DNA from: Bacillales bacterium
GTDB taxonomy: Bacteria > Bacillota > Bacilli > Bacillales > DASSOY01
Assembly: GCA_035700025.1 (NCBI GenBank)
Contig: DASSOY010000072.1
Coordinates: 80,771-144,770, forward strand
Direction: 5' to 3'
DNA length: 64,000 nucleotides
This document shows positions 1,612-30,111 of the stretch, piece by piece; positions within the stretch are counted from its first letter, which is position 1; each line of letters begins with the position of its first letter. Made by a program: the position numbers and the translations under genes. The notes below the pieces were generated by a model, which made no database searches, was not told the DNA's origin, and was given only the letters and a program-made list of their open reading frames with translations.

Positions 1612-2876
1612 AAGCGAGGATCGGCATGGACGCTGAAATCATTGCGGTCGGTTCGGAGTTGCTGCTTGGCCAAATTGTCAACACGAATGCGCAATTTTTA
1701 TCAAAAGAACTTGCTGAATTAGGCATTAATGTGTATTACCATACCGTCGTCGGTGACAACCGTGATCGATTGCGCAACGCCATCACTCACGCGCAAAACC
1801 GTGCCGATTTAATCATTTTTTCCGGCGGTCTTGGTCCGACGAAAGACGATCTTACGAAAGAAACGATCGCCGAATGTTTAGGTCGAAACCTCGTTTACGA
1901 TTCATTGGCGATGGATCAGATCACGAAATATTTTGAAAAGACGAAGCGGCCGATGACGGAAAACAACAAAAAGCAGGCGCTCGTCCTTGAAAACGCCGAA
2001 GTGTTGGCGAATGATCACGGTATGGCTCCCGGCATGGCTCTCCATGTTGATGATAAAACGTACATGTTGTTTCCCGGACCTCCGAGAGAACTGCAACCGA
2101 TGTATGCGAATTACGGGAAACCTTACTTGATGAGAAAGTTGCAAAAAAGAGAAAGGATTACCTCGCGAGTTTTGCGGTTTTTCGGAATCGGAGAATCGAA
2201 ACTTGAAACAGAAATTCTTGATTTGATCGACAGCCAGACGAACCCGACGATCGCCCCGTTGGCTGGTTTCGGCGAAGTCATCCTCCGGCTTACTGCGAAA
2301 AGCCCCTCCTCCGAAGATAACCTCCAATCGCTCGATGCTCTCGAACAGAAAATTATGCGTCGTGTCGGCCGGTTTTTCTACGGCTATGACGACACGAGCC
2401 TTGACAACGAGGTATTCCGAATGTTGAAAAATCGCGGTCTTACGCTTGCTTGCGCAGAAAGTTTGACCGGCGGTTGGTTTGCAAAAACGCTCACCGATAG
2501 ACCGGGAGCTTCCGGTGTGTTGAACGGGGGGGTGGTTGGTTACACGAATCAAGCGAAAGAACATCTGCTTCACATTCCTCGCTCCGTTCTCGACAACGAA
2601 GGTGCTGTAAGCGAAACTTGTGCAAAATTGATGGCGGAAACCTGCATAAACCTTTTCCATGCAGACGTCGGCATCTCGTTTACAGGAGTGGCTGGACCCG
2701 ATGCGAGCGAAGGAAAAGAACCGGGGATCGTCTATGTGGCGATAGCTGAAAGCGGCAAGCGGACACAAGTCCATTCGTTGTTGCTTGCAGGCAACCGAAA
2801 CCGGATACGAAACTTGGCCGTGAAGCACGGATTCTTTTACTTGCTGAAACATTTGCAACACGAAAAATCCGAATGA
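1608..2876 (+). CDS. cinA: Competence/damage-inducible protein CinA (MoCF-binding plus nicotinamide-nucleotide amidase domains)
   Basis: [43 protein letters not shown] and [15 protein letters not shown] are close to B. subtilis CinA. ATGA overlap with the pgsA stop. ATG 1626, with GAGGA upstream, is an alternative start. Confidence 0.9.
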
Positions 2877-2883
2877 ATGTTCG
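2870..2883. promoter_or_regulatory. LexA (Cheo/SOS) box upstream of recA
   Basis: CGAATGAATGTTCG versus consensus CGAACnnnnGTTCG, one mismatch. It overlaps the cinA TGA and lies just upstream of the recA -35. Confidence 0.7.
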
Positions 2884-2892
2884 ATAAAATGG

Positions 2893-2921
2893 TTGGCAAA
2901 TGAAGAAAAACGGTCTATGAT
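2893..2921 (+). promoter_or_regulatory. Sigma-A type promoter of recA
   Basis: TTGGCA (2893-2898), 17 nt spacer, TATGAT (2916-2921), about 50 nt before the recA ATG. Confidence 0.55.
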
Positions 2922-2972
2922 AGAGGTAGAAATCGCGTAAAGACGTGGACCAAAAATGAGGAGTGACAAGCA

Positions 2973-4001
2973 ATGAGTGATCGTAAAGCAGCGTTGGATC
3001 AAGCTTTGAATAAAATTGAGAAACAGTTCGGAAAAGGGTCGATCATGAAGCTCGGAGAACAGGCGGACCGCCGCGTATCAGCCATTTCGAGCGGCTCTCT
3101 TACGCTTGACGTGGCGCTCGGTGTCGGCGGATATCCGCGCGGACGCATCGTCGAGATTTACGGGCCGGAATCATCAGGGAAAACGACGGTCGCCTTGCAT
3201 GCGATCGCTGAAGTGCAAAAGAACGGCGGGCAAGCGGCATTTATTGACGCGGAACATGCGCTCGATCCCGTTTATGCGGAGAAGTTAGGCGTCGACACGA
3301 ATGAATTGCTGCTCTCGCAGCCGGATACCGGCGAGCAAGCGCTCGAAATTGCCGAAGCGTTGGTGCGGAGCGGAGCCGTTGACATCATTGTCGTCGACTC
3401 GGTTGCAGCGCTCGTGCCGCGGGCGGAAATCGAAGGAGAAATGGGCGATTCGCACGTCGGTCTGCAGGCGCGGCTTATGTCGCAGGCGCTTAGGAAACTG
3501 TCCGGCGCGATCAGCAAGTCAAATACGATTGCGATGTTCATCAACCAAATTCGCGAAAAAGTCGGCGTTATGTTCGGGAATCCGGAAACGACGCCAGGGG
3601 GACGAGCCTTGAAGTTTTACTCGTCGGTGCGGCTTGAAGTGCGCCGTGCGGAAACGTTGAAACAAGGCGATGAAATGGTCGGCAGCCGTACACGAATCAA
3701 AATTGTGAAAAACAAAGTGGCGCCGCCGTTCAAAAAATGCGAGGTCGACATCATGTATGGTGAAGGCATTTCCAAAGAAGGCGAAATGCTTGATATTGGG
3801 GCGGCTGAGGATATCGTTCAAAAAAGCGGAGCCTGGTATTCCTATGATGGCGAGCGGCTCGGCCAAGGAAGAGAAAACGCAAAGCAATATTTAAAGGAAA
3901 ATGGAGAAATCGCCGAACAAATTCGCAAGCAAATCCGGCAACATTATCATCTGGAAACGCCGGTACAAGAAGAACCCGCACAGGAAGATCCAGTTTCATG
4001 A
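2973..4001 (+). CDS. recA: Recombinase RecA
   Basis: Walker [23 protein letters not shown] and [28 protein letters not shown]; RBS GAGGAG. Confidence 0.97.
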
Positions 4002-4004
4002 GCG

Positions 4005-4034
4005 AAAAACACCCGCAAGGGTGTTTTTCTTTTG
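4005..4034 (+). terminator. Rho-independent terminator of recA
   Basis: AAAAACACCC-GCAA-GGGTGTTTTT followed by CTTTTG. Confidence 0.8.
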
Positions 4035-4212
4035 CCGCAAAGTCTCTTGCCTTGTCTTGACATTGACCGACCGGAAAGCTTACAATTAAATCGTATATTT
4101 TTGATTTCATTTGAAATTAAAAGTTTACTTTATTCAGTGCTGTATATGAAAGATTGCAGTTACAAAGGTACAGTTGGAAATGCAACCGCAGATAGCAAGA
4201 GGAGGTGACAGT

Positions 4213-12049: not shown

Positions 12050-13225
12050 ATGCAAGGCTTTGAATACTTACAAGAGCGTCTTGATGACATGAAGAAAGAA
12101 GGCGTTTTTCGCGAGCTCATTCCGCTCGAGTCGAAACAAGGCTCGAAGGTAACGATTAAAGGGAAAGAAGTCATTCAGTTGTCTTCGAACAACTACCTCG
12201 GTTTGACGGATCATCCGAAGATGATGGCTGCAGCGGAAAAGGCGGTTGAACAATACGGTGTCGGCACCGGTTCCGTACGTACGATTGCTGGAACGCTGGC
12301 GATGCACAATGAATTTGAGGAAAAATTGGCTGAATTTAAGCACACGGAAGCGGCGCTCGTCTTCCAATCGGGCTTTACGACGAACCAAGGGGTGCTTTCC
12401 TCCATTCTTAGCGAAGGCGACGTCGTCATTTCCGACGAATTGAACCACGCTTCGATTATCGACGGCATTCGTTTGACGAAAGCGGCTCGAAAAATTTACA
12501 AGCATTCCGACATGCAATCGCTCGAAGAAGCGCTGAAAGCTTCGCAAGACTATCGTACGAAGCTCGTTGTTACCGACGGTGTTTTCTCGATGGACGGCGA
12601 CATCGCACCGCTTCCGGAAATTGTCGAATTGGCCGAGAAATACGGCGCGATGGTCATGGTTGACGATGCACACGCCAGCGGTGTGCTTGGCAAAAACGGC
12701 CGCGGCACGGTCAATCATTTCGGTCTCGACGGCCGCGTACACATTCAAGTCGGTACGTTGAGCAAAGCAATCGGCGTGCTCGGCGGGTATGTCGCAAGTA
12801 CGCAAACGCTGCGTGACTATTTGATTCACCAAGGCCGCCCGTTCTTATTCAGCACCTCTCATCCGCCGGCAGTCACTGCGGCTTGCAGCGCGGCGATTGA
12901 CGTGCTGCAAGAGGAGCCGGAATTGATCGAAAAGCTTTGGGACAATACGCGCTTCTTCAAGCAATCGTTGAAAGATCTCGGCTTCGATATCGGCAACAGC
13001 GAAACGCCGATTACGCCGGTGCTTGTCGGCGACGGCGCGAAAGCGCATGAGTTGTCCGATCAACTGTTTGAACACGGCGTATTTGCGCAAGGCATTGCGT
13101 TCCCGACTGTACCGAAAGGGGCTGCCCGCGTGCGCAACATCGTTACGGCGCAACATTCGAAAGAGGAGTTGCAGCAAGCGATTGACGCTTATGAAAAAGT
13201 CGGCAAAAAACTTCGTCTCATCTAA
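12050..13225 (+). CDS. kbl: 2-amino-3-ketobutyrate CoA ligase (glycine C-acetyltransferase)
   Basis: [34 protein letters not shown] and the PLP lysine context GTLSKAIG. It follows tdh, as in B. subtilis. Confidence 0.92.
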
Positions 13226-13268
13226 ACCGATACACCGCCGAACCGGCGGTTTATCGGTTTTTTTTTAT
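13224..13268 (+). terminator. Rho-independent terminator of tdh-kbl
   Basis: Long stem AAACCGATACACCGCCG-AAC-CGGCGGTTTATCGGTTT followed by a T run. Confidence 0.8.
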
Positions 13269-13331
13269 TGTTGGTTTTGGTATAATGAACAAGTTAGAGA
13301 CCGAAGCTGCAACAAGGAGGACGCAAGGAAG

Positions 13332-14834
13332 ATGACTCATTCGTCCGAAAAAACAAAATCGACCGATCATTACGCGAAATATTTTCAACATACGTATCAA
13401 GCGCCGAACTTGAAAGAAGCAAGAAGGCGTCGGAGAAACACCGTTCAACATTTAAACGATTTCAGCATTCCCGAAGACATTCAAGGACTCGGGGAAGGCA
13501 AGCACTATTTAATTCGCACGTACGGCTGCCAAATGAACGAGCATGACACAGAAGTGATGGCAGGCATTTTCGAAGAAATCGGCTATTCGGCGACGGAAGT
13601 TGAGGAAGAGGCCGATGTGATTTTGTTGAACACATGTGCAATTCGGGAAAATGCCGAAAACAAAGTGTTTGGGGAAATCGGTCATTTGACCCATTTGAAA
13701 AAAGAAAAGCCGGGGTTGATTCTCGGCGTTTGCGGCTGCATGGCGCAGGAGGAAGCGGTCGTGAATCGGATTCTCCAAAAGCATCCGCACGTCGACCTCA
13801 TCTTCGGCACGCACAACATTCATCGCTTGCCGCAGCTCATTAAAGAAGCGCTCTTTTCGAAAGAAATGGTGCTTGAAGTTTGGTCTAAGGAAGGCGACGT
13901 GATCGAGGACTTGCCGAAAGCGCGCAAAGGGAACATTCGTGCATGGGTGAACATCATGTACGGCTGCGACAAGTTTTGCACGTATTGCATCGTTCCTTAC
14001 ACGAGAGGCAAAGAACGGAGCCGCAAACCGCAGGAAATCATCAGCGAAGTGCGCGAGCTCGCACGCCAAGGGTATAAGGAAATCACGCTGCTCGGGCAAA
14101 ACGTGAACGCCTACGGCAAAGATTTGGAAGGCGAGACGTACCGCCTCAGCCACTTGATGGATGATATTCGCAAGATCGACATTCCGATCGTGCGTTTTAC
14201 GACAAGTCACCCGTGGGATTTCACGGATGATTTAATCGAAGTGCTGGCCAAAGGCGGCAACCTTGCGGAACACATTCATTTGCCGGTTCAATCCGGAAAT
14301 TCCGACATTTTAAAAATCATGGGCCGCAATTACTCGCGCGAGTCATACCTCGAGTTGTTCCATAAGCTGAAGAAGGCGATTCCGAACGCATCGTTCACGA
14401 CCGACATCATCGTCGGTTATCCGAACGAGACGGAAGAACAGTTCGAAGATACGTTGTCGCTCGTAAGGGAGTGCCAATTTGACGGCGCGTTCACGTTCAT
14501 TTATTCGCCGCGTCCCGGGACACCGGCGGCGAAAATGAAAGATGATGTGCCGATGGACGTAAAGAAAGAGCGGTTGCAGCGGCTCAACGCGCTCGTTAAC
14601 GAACTTTCGGCCAAGAGCAGCAAACGATACGAAGGCAAAACCGTCGAAGTGCTCGTCGAAGGGGAAAGCAAGAAAAATCCGGACGTTTTGTCTGGACATA
14701 CGCGAACTAACAAAGTGGTGAACTTCCGCGGGGATCCTTCCCTCATCGGGGAAATTGTGCCCGTGAAGATCAAGCAGGCGAAAACTTGGTCGTTAGACGG
14801 AGAACTGGCCACAGCAGTCGAGGTGAGTCGATAA
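13332..14834 (+). CDS. miaB: tRNA-i6A37 methylthiotransferase MiaB (radical SAM)
   Basis: ATG 13332. [14 protein letters not shown] (N-terminal Cys cluster), radical-SAM [11 protein letters not shown] and a C-terminal TRAM domain. The ORF-track start at 13023 overlaps kbl and its terminator. Confidence 0.92.
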
Positions 14835-15266: not shown

Positions 15267-15388
15267 ATGGGGAAGGAGCTCTCGCGTGCCGAAAACTGCA
15301 TGATCATCGGGAAGATCGACATTGCACACTAGTCATTCGCCCTGCATAAGATGGGATTGAGATTGGAAGGGGAGGTATTAACAAGAAA

Positions 15389-15955
15389 ATGTCATTTGAT
15401 CATGAACAAAACTATCGAGAAATTATCACAAAGGCGGTCGTCGGCAAAGGAAGAAAATTTTCGCAAAGCGCGCACACCGTTTCTCCGGCGCATCGTCCGT
15501 CAAGCATCCTTGGCTGCTGGATCATCAACCATAAGTACAGAGCGAGAAAAGACGGAGATGTCGTCGTCATCGAAGGAAGCTATGACACGAATACGTGGTA
15601 TTCCCATAATAAGAATACGAAAACCGAAGTTGCGACGGAAACGGTCTCTTATAAAGACGTTGTTCCGCTTTCGGCCAAAGATGAAAACTGCGATAAGTTC
15701 GAAGACGTGCACGTTCGAATCTTGCAAGAGCCGAATTGCTTGGAGGCGAACATTTCTCCAAACGGCAATAAAATCATTATCCAGGCGGAACGCGAAGTAA
15801 TCGTTGAAGTCATCGGCGAGACGAAAATGTGCGTAGCGGTCAATCCGGACGGCTGCATCGGAGACGTTGAGGACAAAAACTGGGACTATGAACTCGAAGA
15901 TGAAGAATTCGAAGATTTGGATCCGAATTTTCTCGTCGGAGATCTTGAAGAATAA
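15389..15955 (+). CDS. cotE: Spore coat morphogenetic protein CotE
   Basis: [42 protein letters not shown] parallels B. subtilis CotE. Acidic C-terminus [21 protein letters not shown]. Confidence 0.9.
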
Positions 15956-16007
15956 CCGGGAAGAAGGGCCCTTCTCCCCGGTTTTTTCCGTATAACGAGG
16001 GAGAGCG

Positions 16008-17054
16008 ATGAAAAAAGCGTTGGCGAATTACATTTCCGGACTGCCGCTCCGGCGCGTGCATGTGCTCCACGATAGGAAAATTACGTTACGTGTGATCAAC
16101 GATGAGTTTGAAGCCATTAAAGTGGAATGGAAGAAACCAGGGGAAACCGACGGTTGGCAGCCGGCGAATCGCGAGGAGCGGTTTCGATTCCGCAAAGGAA
16201 TCGAGACGGCGGTCCATGTTTTGTACGTTTGCGACCTTCCGCACGGCGAATGTATTGTTCAGCGGGAGACGGATGATGAATACCATCTGTTCAAGGTAAG
16301 CGGCAAGGCTGACAGGAACGAACGCCGGCCGCCGTCGGGAATCATCACATACGGCGCGGATGTCGAATGTTTAGTTGTGAGGCGAGGCAGTCATCGACTA
16401 GTACCGGCTTCGCAATGGCTGAGAAGAAACGGTGCGATCGGTTACGATGATGCGGTCGCATTGAAAGGCAACAAAGTTTTGCGGCCGATCGTCGAATTGC
16501 GGCCGGAGCCGGCGGCCGACGGGGATCAATTGTTTATCAATGTGAGCAAACTGTATGTCCGGTTGGAACAATTTTTACGAAAAAATGGGCTTTGCGCCGT
16601 TTCCGAAGGACGCGGGCGATTGTCCCTCGGCGGCCATTTGCATATTGGCGGCGTTCGGCCTTCGTTTTCGCTCGTTCGCCGTCTCGATGTTTTTCTTGCC
16701 TTGCCGATGGCGCTGATCGAACCGGGCGATCCGACGATGCGGCGGAAACGGTTCGGAAGGTTTGGCTCCGTGCGTGCCAACGACTTTGACGGCTTTGAAT
16801 ATCGGGTGCTTGCTTCTTGGTATGATAGGATTCCGGAACTGCTCCCGATGTTTCGTTGGTTTTGTTACCTCGTGCGGCACTATGACCGCCTGCCGTATCT
16901 CTCATTTTCGACAACGATTCTCGAAAGCTATAATGCTCATTCGATCGACCTGTTGAAAGAAACGGCTGCCTGCCTTGAAGGCATTTGTGCAGACATGTTG
17001 CCTGCGGACGATTACAAGTGCATCGCGACGCCTTTTTTTCGGTTGCTTCGCTAG
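16008..17054 (+). CDS. Uncharacterised protein with glutamine-synthetase-fold COOH-NH2 ligase (amidoligase)-like motifs
   Basis: 348 codons. It carries an ordered motif set: YGADVECLV, IVELRPEP, LGGHLHIGG, FGSVRAND, GFEYRV. This is reminiscent of amidoligase/gamma-glutamyl-cysteine-ligase-like families (ExE ... ELxxP ... GxHxH ... R.N ... hEFR). Function is inferred only. Confidence 0.75.
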   Translation: MKKALANYISGLPLRRVHVLHDRKITLRVINDEFEAIKVEWKKPGETDGWQPANREERFRFRKGIETAVHVLYVCDLPHGECIVQRETDDEYHLFKVSGKADRNERRPPSGIITYGADVECLVVRRGSHRLVPASQWLRRNGAIGYDDAVALKGNKVLRPIVELRPEPAADGDQLFINVSKLYVRLEQFLRKNGLCAVSEGRGRLSLGGHLHIGGVRPSFSLVRRLDVFLALPMALIEPGDPTMRRKRFGRFGSVRANDFDGFEYRVLASWYDRIPELLPMFRWFCYLVRHYDRLPYLSFSTTILESYNAHSIDLLKETAACLEGICADMLPADDYKCIATPFFRLLR

Positions 17055-17105
17055 AAACAGAGTATGCTATAATACTTGCAGATGCAGGCGAAAGGATGTC
17101 GAAGC

Positions 17106-19709
17106 ATGGCGTACACTCCGATGATTCAACAATATTTGTCGATTAAGGCACAATACAAGGATGCCTTTTTATTTTTCCGTCTCGGCGATTTTTACGAGAT
17201 GTTTTTCGAGGACGCCAAGCGTGCTTCCAAAGAACTTGAGATTACGCTGACTTCGCGGGACGGAGGCGGAAACGAGCGGATTCCGATGTGCGGGGTGCCT
17301 TATCATTCCGCTTCCGCTTACATCAACCAGTTGATCGAAAAAGGATACAAGATTGCGATTTGCGAACAGATGGAAGATCCGAAGGTGACGAAAGGGATGG
17401 TCAGGCGCGAGGTGGTCCAGCTGATCACCCCCGGGACGATCATGGAAGGGAAAACCCTCAGTGAAAAACAAAACAATTTTATCGTCGCTTTGTCGATGTT
17501 TGATGATCGCTCCTACGGCTTGGCGATGAACGATTTGACGACGGGGGAAAACCGTCTGACGATCGTTTCCGGCGATTGGGACGAGGTTATCCGGGAAATT
17601 GACGCGGTCGATGCGCGGGAGGTCGTCGTGCCTCCCGACCTTCCCGAACAACACGCCAAGCGGATGCGGCAGCAGTTGGACATTACATTGTCGGTCGAAG
17701 CGGAAACGGACGTTCACGAGTCGTTTCGGCCGTTGACGGAAAAGCTCGATGACGATTCATCGATCCTTGCTTTCGGTCGATTGCTGAACTATTTGCTGCG
17801 GACGCAAAAACGGTCACTCGATCATTTGCAGCCGGTGGAAGTCGTTGAACCGAACCAATACATGAAAATGGACGTGCATTCGAAACGAAATTTGGAGCTC
17901 GTCGAGACGATCCGCAACAAAGGGAAAAAAGGGTCGCTGCTCTGGCTCCTTGATGAGACGGCGACGGCTATGGGAGCAAGAAAACTGAAGCAATGGATCG
18001 AACGCCCGCTCGTGAGCCGGCAGGCGATTGCCGAAAGGCTGCAAGTTGTCGCTGCGTTAAAGGACCAATTCTTTCAGAGAGAAGCGTTGCGCGAAGAGTT
18101 GAAAGGCGTGTACGACCTTGAACGATTGGCGGGGCGAGTGGCGTTCGGCAACGTCAACGCGCGGGATTTGGTGCAATTGAAGAAATCGCTGCAGCGGGTT
18201 CCGGGGATTGTCGCGGTCGTCAATGAGCTTGAGGAATTGCCGGTTCAGGAAAGGTTCGGCCGTCTCGAATTGTGCGAATCGCTCGTCGCGTTGCTTGAAG
18301 CTGGCATCGCCGACGACCCGCCGCTTTCCGTAAAAGACGGCGGACTGATTAAGGACGGTTACAACCGCCAGTTGGACGAGTACCGCGAAGCGGCACGGAA
18401 CGGGAAAGATTGGATTGCCGCCCTGCAGATGAGAGAACGGGAAGAAACAGGCATCAAGTCGCTGAAAGTCGGCTTTAACAAAGTGTTCGGCTATTATATC
18501 GAAGTGACGAAAGCGAACCTCGGCCAAATTCCGGAAGGCCGTTACGAACGAAAACAAACGTTGACAAATGCGGAACGGTACGTCACCCCTGAATTGAAAG
18601 AAAAGGAAGTGCTGATTCTCGAGGCTGAGGAGAAAATGCTTGACCTTGAATACGAACTGTTCTTGGCGATTCGCGAACAAGTGAAAACGTACATACCTGA
18701 TTTGCAGCTTCTTGCGAAACAGATCGCCGAACTCGACGTGTTGCAAGGGTTCGCGGTTGTGAGCGAAGAAAGGCAGTATTGCTGCCCGGAATTTTCCCGC
18801 GACCGGGAAATCATGATTCGCGGCGGAAGGCATCCCGTCGTTGAGAAAGTGCTCGACGACGGCACGTATGTTGCCAATAATTTCGAGATGAACCGCGAGC
18901 GGAACATGCTGCTGATCACGGGACCGAACATGGCGGGAAAGAGCACGTATATGCGCCAGCTCGCGCTGACCGCCGTAATGATGCAGGTCGGTTGTTTCGT
19001 TCCCGCGGCGGAAGCCCGTTTGCCGATCTTCGATCAAGTGTTCACGCGTATTGGGGCGGCCGACGATCTCGTCGGCGGTCAAAGCACGTTCATGGTCGAA
19101 ATGCTCGAAACGAAGGATGCGCTCGCAAAGGCGACCGAACATAGTCTCATCTTGCTCGATGAGATCGGCAGGGGAACGTCGACGTACGACGGGATCGCGC
19201 TTGCCCAGGCGATCATTGAGCATATTCACGACACGATCAAAGCGACGACACTGTTTTCGACCCATTACCATGAACTTACGAAACTAGGCAAAACCCTCGA
19301 CCGGCTCGTAAACGTTCACGTCGGGGCAATGGAGGACGAAGGACGCATCGTGTTTCTCCATAAAGTGATCGAAGGGGCCGCGGATGAGAGCTACGGCATC
19401 CACGTCGCGCAGTTGGCGGAATTGCCCGACGAAGTCATTGCGCGGGCGCGCGTCATTTTGAAAGAGTTGGAGACGTCGTCGCAAGCAGCCGCGAGCGTCC
19501 AAGATCGCCGGTCGGAAGAACGGGATCTCGGTAAGCAATTGTCGTTTTTCGTGCGCGATTCCGGGGGACACCCGAAGCGAAAAGCGATGTCGGAGAAAGA
19601 AGGGCAATTGATCCGGAAACTGCAAACGATCGATTTGATGGAGTTGACGCCGCTTGAGGCGATGAACAAGTTGTACGAGCTGCAAAAAATGGTGGACGAG
19701 AAAGGGTGA
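17106..19709 (+). CDS. mutS: DNA mismatch repair protein MutS
   Basis: [37 protein letters not shown], Walker [14 protein letters not shown], and [12 protein letters not shown]. Confidence 0.96.
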
Positions 19710-23516: not shown

Positions 23517-24506
23517 TTAACTCCCCCGAAAACGGGGGAGTTCGTCGTTTGCGGCGGCTGCGATGTATTTTTTTAACGAAACGATGGTTTTCATTCCTGT
23601 CAACGCTTGCACATCTTTGGCGTTTTCACCCGCTTGCAGCCGCCGCAAAATGCAAGTACGGCGCAAATGCTGCAACGAAATGCCGGCTCTCAGCCCCGCG
23701 CGTTTCACTTCTTGGCGGATCATTTTTTGTACGGCGATCTCCGTCAACCGTTTCGGCGCATCTTCCGAATAATCCCAGCGATACGTATTTCTTTGATAAT
23801 CGAAAGCGACAAACAATGGGTCCCGGCTTCGTCTGCGCGGCCTTACCGCCGGCGGGATTTTTTTATAATAAGCGAACACGAGCTTCATGTCCTCGGGTTT
23901 CAGGTGCAGCGTGCGGGCTGAGTGTCCGGTCGGTGCAATGTCGACGGTTTTCTTCTCGAAATGAACATCTTTCATGTTGATCGCCGTCAATTCCGCCAGC
24001 GTCATGCCGCAGGAAAGAACGATGCTTACGATCGCGAGGTTTCGGCTTGCCAAAAAGCTTCGCGATTCGATTTGCTGATCGCTTAGTCCGGAAAGGGAGG
24101 GGATCGACTCAAGCAATTGCGCCGCTTCTTGATCGGAAATGAAATCGGCTGCGGTGAAAGTGTCTTCATTGCTGTTCGAAACGTCCATTGGTTCGACGGG
24201 ATTTTCGGCGACCATACCGAGGGTCAGAAAATGTTCGTAAAATCTTTTCAAAACAGAGGTCACCCGCGCAACCGTTCGTTTTGAATACCGCTTCGTTTCT
24301 GTTAAATAAGCGAGATACGATGCCACATCTTCCGTGGTGCAATGCAGCCAAGTTTTTTCGGCAAACGCGGCACGAACCCACATAAAGTAATTTTCCAGAT
24401 CATATGCATACCTTCGTATCGTTGATGGACGACGGCCGGTTTTTTCCAACTCCGAGAAAAAGGATTGTGCAGCTTGCGGCAGTGAACGTTTGTTGACTAC
24501 ATCCAC
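23517..24506 (-). CDS. Tyrosine recombinase/phage-integrase-family protein with a degenerate catalytic set
   Basis: GTG 24506 is 6 nt after AAGGGGGTG, with TATAAT (complement of 24528-24533) upstream. N-terminal core-binding domain: RRPSTIRRYAYDLENYFMW, KRYSKRTVARVTSVLKRFYEHF. C-terminal domain: CGMTLAEL where Xer proteins have tGlRisEL, then HLRR (HxxR), TGM in place of LGH, and LKKY (Tyr). Confidence 0.8.
   Translation of the reverse strand: MDVVNKRSLPQAAQSFFSELEKTGRRPSTIRRYAYDLENYFMWVRAAFAEKTWLHCTTEDVASYLAYLTETKRYSKRTVARVTSVLKRFYEHFLTLGMVAENPVEPMDVSNSNEDTFTAADFISDQEAAQLLESIPSLSGLSDQQIESRSFLASRNLAIVSIVLSCGMTLAELTAINMKDVHFEKKTVDIAPTGHSARTLHLKPEDMKLVFAYYKKIPPAVRPRRRSRDPLFVAFDYQRNTYRWDYSEDAPKRLTEIAVQKMIRQEVKRAGLRAGISLQHLRRTCILRRLQAGENAKDVQALTGMKTIVSLKKYIAAAANDELPRFRGS
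23519..23542. terminator. GC-rich hairpin after hfq, terminator-like with a weak U tract
   Basis: AACTCCCCCG-AAAA-CGGGGGAGTT. It lies inside the last 8 codons of the convergent recombinase-like ORF. Confidence 0.5.
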
Positions 24507-24756
24507 ATGTCCCACCCCCTTGCAACCATTATAGCAAGGCGGGGAAATGTTGCCACCGTTGGGCAATTATTTCCCAGGTAAGCGCAAAAATTGACAAAAT
24601 ACATTCAATGCGGGTAATGATTCGACTAAAAATGGGGCTTTCTCGTCTTTGTTCGACGAAATCTGAAAACGAAAAAATGTTCGCTGGGCGTTTGTCACAA
24701 TTGTACCGACGCCGCCGTATACTGTGGGTGAACCGAATCGGAAGAGGTGATTCTCC

Positions 24757-28333: not shown

Positions 28334-28729
28334 GTGAATGATGAAGTTCGCCGTAACATGCCGCTTTTTCCAATCGGAACCGTTATACAACTGACGGAGC
28401 TTTCTGCAAGGCAAATTCGCTATTATGAACAGCATGGATTAATCCACCCGACAAGAACGAAAGGCAATCAACGGTTGTTTTCTTTCCGTGATGTTGATAC
28501 TTTGCTTGAGATCAAGAAACTCGTTGAAGACGGGGTAAACTTGGCAGGCATTAAACAAATTTTCAACATGAAGAGAGAGGCTGAAGCATTGCCGGCAGCA
28601 GTGGAAACGACGAAAGAAAAGATGAGTGACGAACAGTTAATGAAGTATTTGAAGAAAGAATTAATCCATGCAGGGAAACAAGGGAAGGCTTCGCTCATTC
28701 AAGGTGAATTGTCTAGGTTTTTTCATTAA
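28334..28729 (+). CDS. glnR: MerR-family nitrogen regulator GlnR
   Basis: [58 protein letters not shown] start after GGAAGGAGGG. Confidence 0.93.
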
Positions 28730-28776
28730 TGAAAATAGGACGAGATGTATGAAATTTAAGGAGGAGAAACCTGCCG

Positions 28777-30111
28777 ATGGGTAACTATTCAAGGGAAGAC
28801 ATTTTGAAAATTGCCGATGAGCAAGACGTTCGTTACATTCGTTTGCAATTCACGGACATGCTCGGCATCATTAAGAACGTGGAAATTCCAGTCGATCAAT
28901 TGGGGAAAGCACTCGACAACGAAATGATGTTTGATGGATCATCGATCGAAGGCTTCGTCCGTATCGAAGAATCCGACATGAAATTGTTTCCCGATCTCGA
29001 TTCATGGGTCATATTTCCGTGGACGCCGGAAAAGGGAAAAGTCGCCCGTTTAATCTGCGACGTACACAATCCGGACGGAACGCCTTTTGAAGGGGATCCG
29101 CGCGGCATTTTGAAAAGAGTACTGAAAGACATGGAAAGACTCGGGTTTTCCGATTTCAATATCGGACCGGAACCGGAATTTTTCTTGTTCAAGATGGACG
29201 AGAACGGGGAACCGACGCTTGAGTTGAACGACAAAGGCGGCTATTTCGATCTGGCGCCGACGGATCTCGGCGAGAATTGCCGCCGCGACATCGTGCTTGA
29301 GCTTGAGGACATGGGCTTTGAAATCGAAGCTTCTCATCATGAAGTCGCTCCGGGACAACACGAAATTGATTTTAAATATGCGGATGCTGTGACGACATGC
29401 GACAACATTCAAACGTTCAAACTCGTCGTGAAAACGATCGCTCGCAAGCATGGCTTGCATGCGACGTTCATGCCGAAACCATTGTTCGGCGTTAACGGAT
29501 CGGGCATGCATTCAAACATGTCGCTATTTAAAGGAAAGGAAAATGCTTTCTATGACGAGAAGAGCGAGCTCGGTTTGAGCGAAACCGCGATGCAATTTTT
29601 GGCTGGCATCATTAAGCATGCCCAAGGATTCACCGCGATTACGAACCCGCTCGTCAATTCGTACAAACGATTGGTTCCCGGCTATGAAGCGCCGTCCTAT
29701 ATCGCTTGGTCGCTGAGAAACAGAAGCCCGCTCATTCGCATTCCGGCCTCGCGCGGATTGAGCACGCGAATCGAAGTTCGCAGCGTTGATCCATCGGCTA
29801 ACCCGTATTTGGCGATGGCTGTCTTGTTGGCATCAGGTCTTGACGGTGTCGAAAACAAGTTGACACCGCCGGCACCGGTCGACCGCAACATTTACGTCAT
29901 GGACGACGAGGAACTCGAGAAGGAAGGCATTAAGCAGCTTCCTGCGACGTTGAAAGGTGCATTGGAGCATTTCCGGAAAGACGAAGTGCTGTTGAGAGCG
30001 TTAGGCGCTCATGCTTCCGAACACTTTATCGAAGCGAAAGAAATTGAGTGGGACATGTTCCGCACGCAAGTGCATCCGTGGGAACGCGAACAGTATTTGA
30101 CTTCTTATTAA
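28777..30111 (+). CDS. glnA: Glutamine synthetase type I
   Basis: [41 protein letters not shown] and NRSPLIRIP. Confidence 0.97.

Follow-up and report, generated by a model that had tools for sequence, protein, structure and literature searches.

The DNA analysed here is a 64,000-nucleotide stretch of a Bacillales bacterium genome (contig DASSOY010000072.1, positions 80,771 to 144,770), referred to below as the window. Within it, an open reading frame (ORF) encoding 348 residues, designated gene X, begins with ATG and occupies 16008-17054 of the forward strand, between cotE and mutS, with mutL following mutS. The X product carries five motifs, in the order YGADVECLV (residues 115-123), IVELRPEP (161-168), LGGHLHIGG (207-215), FGSVRAND (252-259) and GFEYRV (262-267). 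An initial annotation, made from the DNA letters and translated ORFs, had described this ORF, its five motifs and their order, and its two neighbors; all were found again in the sequence, with PF10628 and MutS matches for the flanking genes. X is a real gene rather than a chance frame, because it has homologues down to 26% identity and scores 136 bits against a Pfam model with a cut-off of 25 bits. An identical protein from a soil "Bacillales bacterium" metagenome-assembled genome (MAG) is deposited at NCBI as a hypothetical protein, pre-annotated with PF14395, and several X orthologues are named "putative amidoligase domain-containing protein" by NCBI. The genes and domains concerned are as follows.

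15389..15955, + strand: cotE, outer spore coat morphogenetic protein, 188 residues with an acidic tail (Pfam PF10628, E=6.8e-81)
16008..17054, + strand: gene X, putative ATP-dependent carboxylate-amine ligase, 348 residues (Pfam, model, conservation)
16008..16307, + strand: N-terminal domain of X, residues 1-100; beta-hairpin, helix and two strands in the model; outside every Pfam model
16353..16934, + strand: glutamine synthetase (GS)-fold catalytic domain of X, residues 116-309 (PF14395), with D118/E120, E163, H210/H212, R245/R246, N258 and E264/R266
17106..19709, + strand: mutS, start taken as ATG 17106 (MutS domains identified in homologous loci)

Family and fold of the X protein

Residues 116-309 of X match the Pfam family PF14395, COOH-NH2_lig (phage phiEco32-like COOH.NH2 ligase type 2), with E=1.3e-39 and 136.4 bits, compared with a gathering cut-off of 25 bits; the match covers model positions 2-198 of 254 only. 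With the E-value limit set at 10, PF14395 alone was returned from Pfam, with no match to GCS2/YbdK, Amidoligase_2, Pup ligase or Gln-synt_C/N, and no NCBIfam model matched X. An AlphaFold2 model built from six sequences had a predicted local distance difference test (pLDDT) score of 80.7 and a predicted template-modeling (pTM) score of 0.83. When this model was compared with the PDB using Foldseek, the matches were glutamine synthetases, YbdK (1r8g, 1tt4), GmaS and glutamate-cysteine ligases, at probabilities of 0.95-1.0; the template-modeling (TM) scores were only 0.3-0.48, the best being that of YbdK (1tt4, 0.48 over 336 columns). Against predicted viral structures, the best matches were annotated as COOH-NH2 ligase or amidoligase.

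Conservation points to the same fold. An exhaustive profile search retrieved 1029 relatives of X at E<=1e-3 (a word-index search gave only 6), and an alignment of 21 homologues, 26-46% identical to X, contains 19 invariant residues: R86, G116, D118, E120, D147, E163, G208, H210, H212, D227, P233, R245, R246, G250, N258, G262, E264, Y265 and R266. This set takes in the core of each of the five motifs, including the predicted catalytic residues. The invariant residues of X run as an acidic pair, Glu, His-x-His, Arg and Glu-x-Arg, an order typical of the metal- and ATP-binding strands of the GS superfamily, the likeness being one of order and pattern only.

The initial annotation had assigned X to the GS-like amidoligases from the motifs. 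The PF14395 match and the Foldseek matches to GS, YbdK and glutamate-cysteine ligase bear this out; no different fold emerged from the Pfam search and structure prediction, the Foldseek matches lying in the GS superfamily, and the motif residues on which the assignment was built are invariant in the 21 homologues. We regard X as almost certainly a GS-fold member of PF14395, and as probably an active ligase.

An ATP-grasp-like N-terminal domain

The initial annotation made no mention of a second domain. Modeled alone from 21 sequences, the N-terminal region of X gave a pLDDT of 87.3, and 50 of its top 50 Foldseek matches in the PDB were ATP-grasp enzymes (probability 0.97-1.0, TM score relative to the query 0.42-0.50). 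These include D-Ala-D-Ala ligase, ArgX, RimK, PsnB, MdnB/MdnC, L-amino-acid ligases, Asp1 kinase and pyruvate carboxylase. The matches span 73-113 alignment columns of targets 243-1072 residues long, most of them 275-335 residues. Its homologue in Paenibacillaceae relatives is the C-terminal two-thirds of a longer N-terminal region of about 200 residues (hhalign 97.4%, E=1.6e-11). Searched against PDB sequences, a profile of the longer region retrieved RimK only, marginally (E=0.02). The match runs in two collinear blocks, one at the start of the ATP-grasp module and the other at its "GVDI...VMEVN.SPG" metal-binding strands. Comparison of the region with the YheC/D domain by hhalign was likewise marginal (E=0.11), on the right motif, and a Pfam scan of the region gave no match. 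The sequence support being weak, the ATP-grasp reading of the N-terminal region rests mainly on structure prediction.

The RimK sequence VMEVNASPG corresponds to V-x-D-V-D/E-P in the long forms and to HLFKVSG in X. The ATP-grasp lid and the E-x-N metal ligands are gone in X, which lacks a complete ATP-grasp module; because of these losses we read the domain as an inactivated remnant. On the model, residues 1-100 are probably a truncated, inactive ATP-grasp domain of the RimK/Ddl type, most plausibly with a binding or scaffolding role.

A natural fusion was also found. The 977-residue protein P0109, from a Haloplasmataceae MAG, joins an ATP-grasp-like N-region and a PF14395 ligase to a complete YheC/D-type ATP-grasp. 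The fusion ties the two ligase types together functionally and suggests that, in this protein, they act on one substrate. YheC and YheD have been described as coat-associated in B. subtilis.

Transcription signals around X

The signals flanking X, all on the same strand, are as follows.

15326..15353, + strand: sigma-K-like motif AC-N17-CATAAGATG, 36 nucleotides (nt) 5' of the cotE start; weak resemblance to the sigma-K consensus
15956..15987, + strand: cotE intrinsic terminator, CCGGGAAGAAGGGCCCTTCTCCCCGG followed by TTTTTT; G+C-rich hairpin of 12 pairs with one internal mismatch, then U6
15997..16003, + strand: ribosome-binding site (RBS) of X, GAGGGAG, read from the sequence; begins 9 nt past the terminator U-tract
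17063..17073, + strand: extended -10 element TATGCTATAAT, presumed sigma-A promoter of mutSL, 9 nt past the X stop codon

The spacer between cotE and X is 52 nt long and is almost wholly terminator. The hairpin occupies 15956-15981 and the TTTTTT run 15982-15987; a 66-nt stretch around them folds at -22.5 kcal/mol. A hairpin and T-run also lie 3' of cotE in all 12 of the other loci that could be read over the cotE-X junction, and in both of the loci that lack X. The initial annotation had seen no terminator in this spacer (15956-16007) and had built its operon argument on that; neither holds as put, since a strong intrinsic terminator separates the two genes.

In the window and in two other loci (L001 and L004) the RBS of X follows directly after the T-tract, so closely that no promoter of X could fit between them. 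Matches to the sigma-A, E, K, G and F consensus sequences in 13 cotE-X spacers were no commoner than in shuffled sequence, and a generic promoter scan of the window spacer found none. At the other end of the gene, a TRTGnTATAAT-type element is present 5' of mutS in seven of nine X-containing loci, and the two loci that lack X have it too. The place of X is thus exact, with the cotE terminator on one side and the mutSL promoter on the other. The interval between X and mutS contains no terminator, and in one locus (L002) it shrinks to 3 nt.

With a terminator upstream and no promoter detected, the probable source of X is transcription that reads through the cotE terminator. The cotE gene of B. 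subtilis is transcribed in the mother cell, from one promoter for sigma-E (P1) and another for sigma-K (P2) (PMC517825), so read-through from cotE would favor mother-cell expression of X. We consider the link of X expression to cotE and the mother cell, drawn from these signals, an evenly balanced proposition. Sporulation-linked expression of X, which the initial annotation had already suggested, is therefore supported by inference, although by read-through, a route other than the one proposed there.

Distribution, synteny and rate of change

X lies directly 5' of mutS in every locus that could be read, and cotE lies directly 5' of X wherever the upstream flank is present. The order cotE-X-mutS was found in the window, L002, L004, L006, L008, L010-L014 and the P0037 contig; X-mutS was found in L001, L003 and L007. 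The loci come from soil Bacillales MAGs (L001-L003, L006), Logan assemblies (L004/L005), a JGI contig (L007), Texcoconibacillus texcoconensis (L008), Anaerobacillus alkalidiazotrophicus (L010), Bacillaceae bacterium IKA-2 (L011), and Alteribacter lacisalsi together with an Alteribacter genome whose X clusters with that of A. populi (L012, L013). Longer PF14395 proteins of 440-540 residues, with E values of 1e-80 to 1e-96, are encoded in Paenibacillaceae (Paenibacillus, Gorillibacterium). Both of the two long-form genes that were looked up adjoin cotE on its 3' side, with mutS next where it could be identified.

In Fictibacillus and Priestia, cotE is followed directly by mutS, without X. The empty sites (L015, 4547-4690; L016, 4574-4674) consist of the cotE terminator, a TRTGTTATAAT element and mutS, and they show the exact place at which X is inserted.

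Two contigs of the same soil MAG, SMAG_U2390, each carry the 3' end of cotE, an X homologue and mutS (L001, 1-4247; L003, 1-7554). Their X homologues are 45% and 41% identical to the window X, respectively; the presence of two such contigs means that the bin probably mixes two organisms, or that the region is duplicated. In L001, mutS falls into two pieces (ORFs 1381-2148 and 2167-4035), pointing to a frameshift or an error in the assembly.

Over ten loci, mean pairwise identity is 68.5% for CotE, 61.5% for MutS and 36% for X. X identity follows MutS identity (Spearman rho 0.68), which argues for vertical inheritance in place, and the G+C content of X is like that of the neighboring genes. On this evidence X is an old, vertically inherited resident of the site that is changing fast except at its predicted active site. 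Recent horizontal transfer was considered and rejected on account of the native composition, the lack of nearby mobile genes and the tracking of MutS identity.

Single comparisons illustrate the spread in rates. In the Alteribacter pair (L012 and L013), CotE is 90%, MutS 73% and X 39% identical. Between the window and L002-L014, Q85-R86 in the N-terminal domain and the predicted catalytic residues of X are unchanged despite the fast divergence.

The wider window

The rest of the window is an ordinary stretch of Bacillales chromosome. The gene order leading to X is rodZ, cinA, recA, rny, ymdB, tdh, kbl, miaB, ricA/ymcA, cotE and X, and the order beyond it is mutS, mutL, miaA, a spoVK-like gene, hflX, glnR and glnA. 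The genuine glutamine synthetase of the window, GlnA (28777-30108), matches Gln-synt_N and Gln-synt_C with E=2e-142 and is preceded by a glnR-sized ORF (region 28334-30108).

Two listed ORF starts are probably too far upstream: that of mutS (TTG 17076; ATG 17106 is the most likely start) and that of miaB (13023-14834, TTG 13023, which would overlap kbl by about 200 nt). A tyrosine recombinase gene of the phage-integrase family lies at 23517-24563 on the reverse strand, flanked by miaA and the spoVK-like AAA gene. L006 ends with another member of this family, on the opposite strand and just 3' of hfq, which there follows miaA. Since the recombinase recurs near miaA, it is more likely to be a resident, Xer-like gene than a mobile element.

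Proposed function and alternatives

The best overall explanation, to which we assign a probability of roughly 0.55, is that X is an ATP-dependent carboxylate-amine ligase of the sporulating mother cell with a target in the outer layers of the spore. X would then be a cytoplasmic two-domain enzyme, with residues from about 110 to 348 forming the catalytic GS-fold domain. By analogy with the superfamily, Mg-ATP would be bound via D118/E120, E163, H210/H212, R245/R246 and E264/R266; the carboxylate of the substrate would be phosphorylated to an acyl-phosphate, and attack by an amine would give an amide or isopeptide bond. The protein would be made at a low level in the mother cell during sporulation, through read-through of the cotE terminator, and would modify some component of the spore outer layers. 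Placing the substrate itself in the coat or spore envelope is tentative, and gene position is what points there.

The acidic C-terminal tail of CotE was considered as the substrate, and the comparisons do not favor it. Tails ending in ...GDLEE or ...EEE occur throughout the Bacillaceae, in Priestia and Fictibacillus as well, although these two have no X, and the CotE of a Paenibacillus that does carry X ends differently. A more specific scheme, in which the relic RimK-like half docks an acidic tail (CotE ...GDLEE being the obvious candidate) while the GS-fold domain adds an amine or amino acid or joins a lysine of another coat protein, seems to us improbable. If true, coat assembly would include a PafA-like isopeptide cross-link made at the expense of ATP, separate from the cross-linking by transglutaminase.

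Several results weigh against a ligase acting on the spore surface. As regards the enzyme, PDB sequence searches with the single X sequence and with a 21-sequence profile returned noise only, and hhalign of the X family profile against the window GlnA gave a probability of 0.1%, with one aligned stretch topologically sensible. The literature searched gave no biochemical or genetic data on any PF14395 member; in the phage papers the domain is simply an annotation, or accompanies DNA-hypermodification genes for no known reason, and no member appears to have an experimental structure. As regards expression, the cotE hairpin looks efficient and might let hardly any transcription pass; X could have a promoter of some kind outside the sigma-A/E/K/G/F scan; and with no terminator 3' of the gene, X transcripts would run into mutSL. 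As regards a role in the coat, the CotE acidic tail does not co-vary with the presence of X, and X diverges fast (36% mean identity). Finally, cotE adjoins mutS in every one of the Bacillaceae examined; one insertion long ago would thus yield the same synteny, and the position of X may be a historical accident.

The last of these points is the core of the strongest alternative, in which X is an active ligase of small metabolites, like YbdK, GshA or the amine-utilizing GS relatives, with no spore role and a position frozen since one ancient insertion. Its closest solved folds do include small-molecule ligases (YbdK, GmaS, glutamate-cysteine ligase), vertical inheritance suffices to explain the synteny, many spore formers lack X (Priestia and Fictibacillus among them), and no substrate-linked gene adjoins it. 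However, X has been held at the exact spot across lineages whose MutS proteins are only 50-60% identical, and in two families; it has no detected promoter of its own; one lineage has PF14395 joined to a YheC/D-type ATP-grasp; and in a metabolic enzyme one would look for slower evolution than the 36% mean identity of X implies. We consider this alternative doubtful.

The transcription signals bear on another proposal, that X heads an X-mutS-mutL transcript and has DNA, nucleotides or MutS/MutL as its target. X is directly 5' of mutS in every locus, with no terminator between them and a gap as short as 3 nt, and there is a parallel in the amidoligase genes of phage thymidine-hypermodification clusters; amidoligase-family genes co-occur with phage DNA hypermodification genes, their function being unknown (PMC8989533). 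Nevertheless, the conserved extended -10 element for mutS lies 3' of X, in the same place as in genomes without X, and therefore mutSL does not depend on transcription of X. Moreover, most Bacillaceae run mismatch repair without X, and the Pfam scan gave X no nucleic-acid-binding domain. These observations make the mutSL proposal very improbable.

Least credible of all is that X is a decaying or non-catalytic remnant, for instance of phage origin, drifting to loss: its very fast divergence, its N-terminal module truncated relative to the Paenibacillaceae forms, its match to only positions 2-198 of 254 in the Pfam model, its absence from many relatives and the phage name of its family are what such a remnant would display, but the frame is intact in all loci, 19 residues, all the predicted catalytic ones among them, do not vary in homologues only 26-46% identical, the composition is native, and no mobile-element genes flank it in the loci read.

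Relation to known systems

The Pfam entry for PF14395 reportedly states that in Firmicutes the family adjoins genes for YheC/D-like ATP-grasp proteins and CotE and may act in cell-wall modification or spore-coat biosynthesis. The CotE neighborhood is borne out in the window and in every locus with an upstream flank to read. The entry reportedly goes back to work by Iyer, Abhiman, Burroughs and Aravind published in 2009 in Mol Biosyst 5:1636. The finding made here for X is a re-derivation of that computational prediction and is an annotation-level result. Four things are new here: a terminator where none had been seen, the terminator-X-promoter arrangement, how far the synteny extends and where it stops, and a domain read as an ATP-grasp relic. 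The locus also illustrates well how a gene can lie between one terminator and the promoter that follows, its expression apparently governed by how much the terminator leaks. Its presence beside cotE in Paenibacillaceae and alkaliphilic Bacillaceae makes X a tractable entry point to an uncharacterized family, one that might bring to light a modification of the spore surface through ATP-dependent amide bonds.

X qualifies directly for PF14395 by its HMM score (136 bits, the cut-off being 25) but belongs to a short, divergent branch of 348-400 residues (E=1e-39, compared with 1e-80 to 1e-96 for the 440-540-residue Paenibacillaceae proteins), and its N-terminal module is reduced to about 100 residues. 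The best-superposing solved folds are those of YbdK/GCS2 (1r8g, 1tt4; probability 1.0 for 1tt4) and glutamate-cysteine ligase. YbdK resembles X in size and has a single catalytic domain, but it lacks the ATP-grasp-like N-terminal domain, its activity is weak and on small molecules, and no sequence similarity to X was detected. The top Foldseek matches are glutamine synthetases, in which the DxE, E, HxH, R and ExR strands come in the same order; GS, however, has a beta-grasp N-terminal domain where X has an ATP-grasp-like one, and X matches no Gln-synt Pfam model. The possibility that X is a bona fide glutamine synthetase was rejected on these two grounds, together with the 0.1% hhalign probability against GlnA.

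Two further comparisons bear on what X may do. PafA, the Pup ligase, also has the GS fold and ligates a protein carboxylate to a protein lysine through an isopeptide bond (PMC3511204). This is the chemistry that a coat modifier would require, but PafA and Dop are not among the top Pfam or Foldseek matches of X, and no gene for a Pup-like partner is present at the locus. The other comparison is with RimK and the YheC/YheD-type ligases: the model of the X N-terminal domain superposes on the C-terminal half of RimK, Ddl, ArgX, PsnB and MdnC, but X keeps only about 100 residues of this module, without the E-x-N metal strand and the ATP-binding lid. Set beside these systems, X is a reasonable candidate for a spore-coat modifier rather than a new kind of system.

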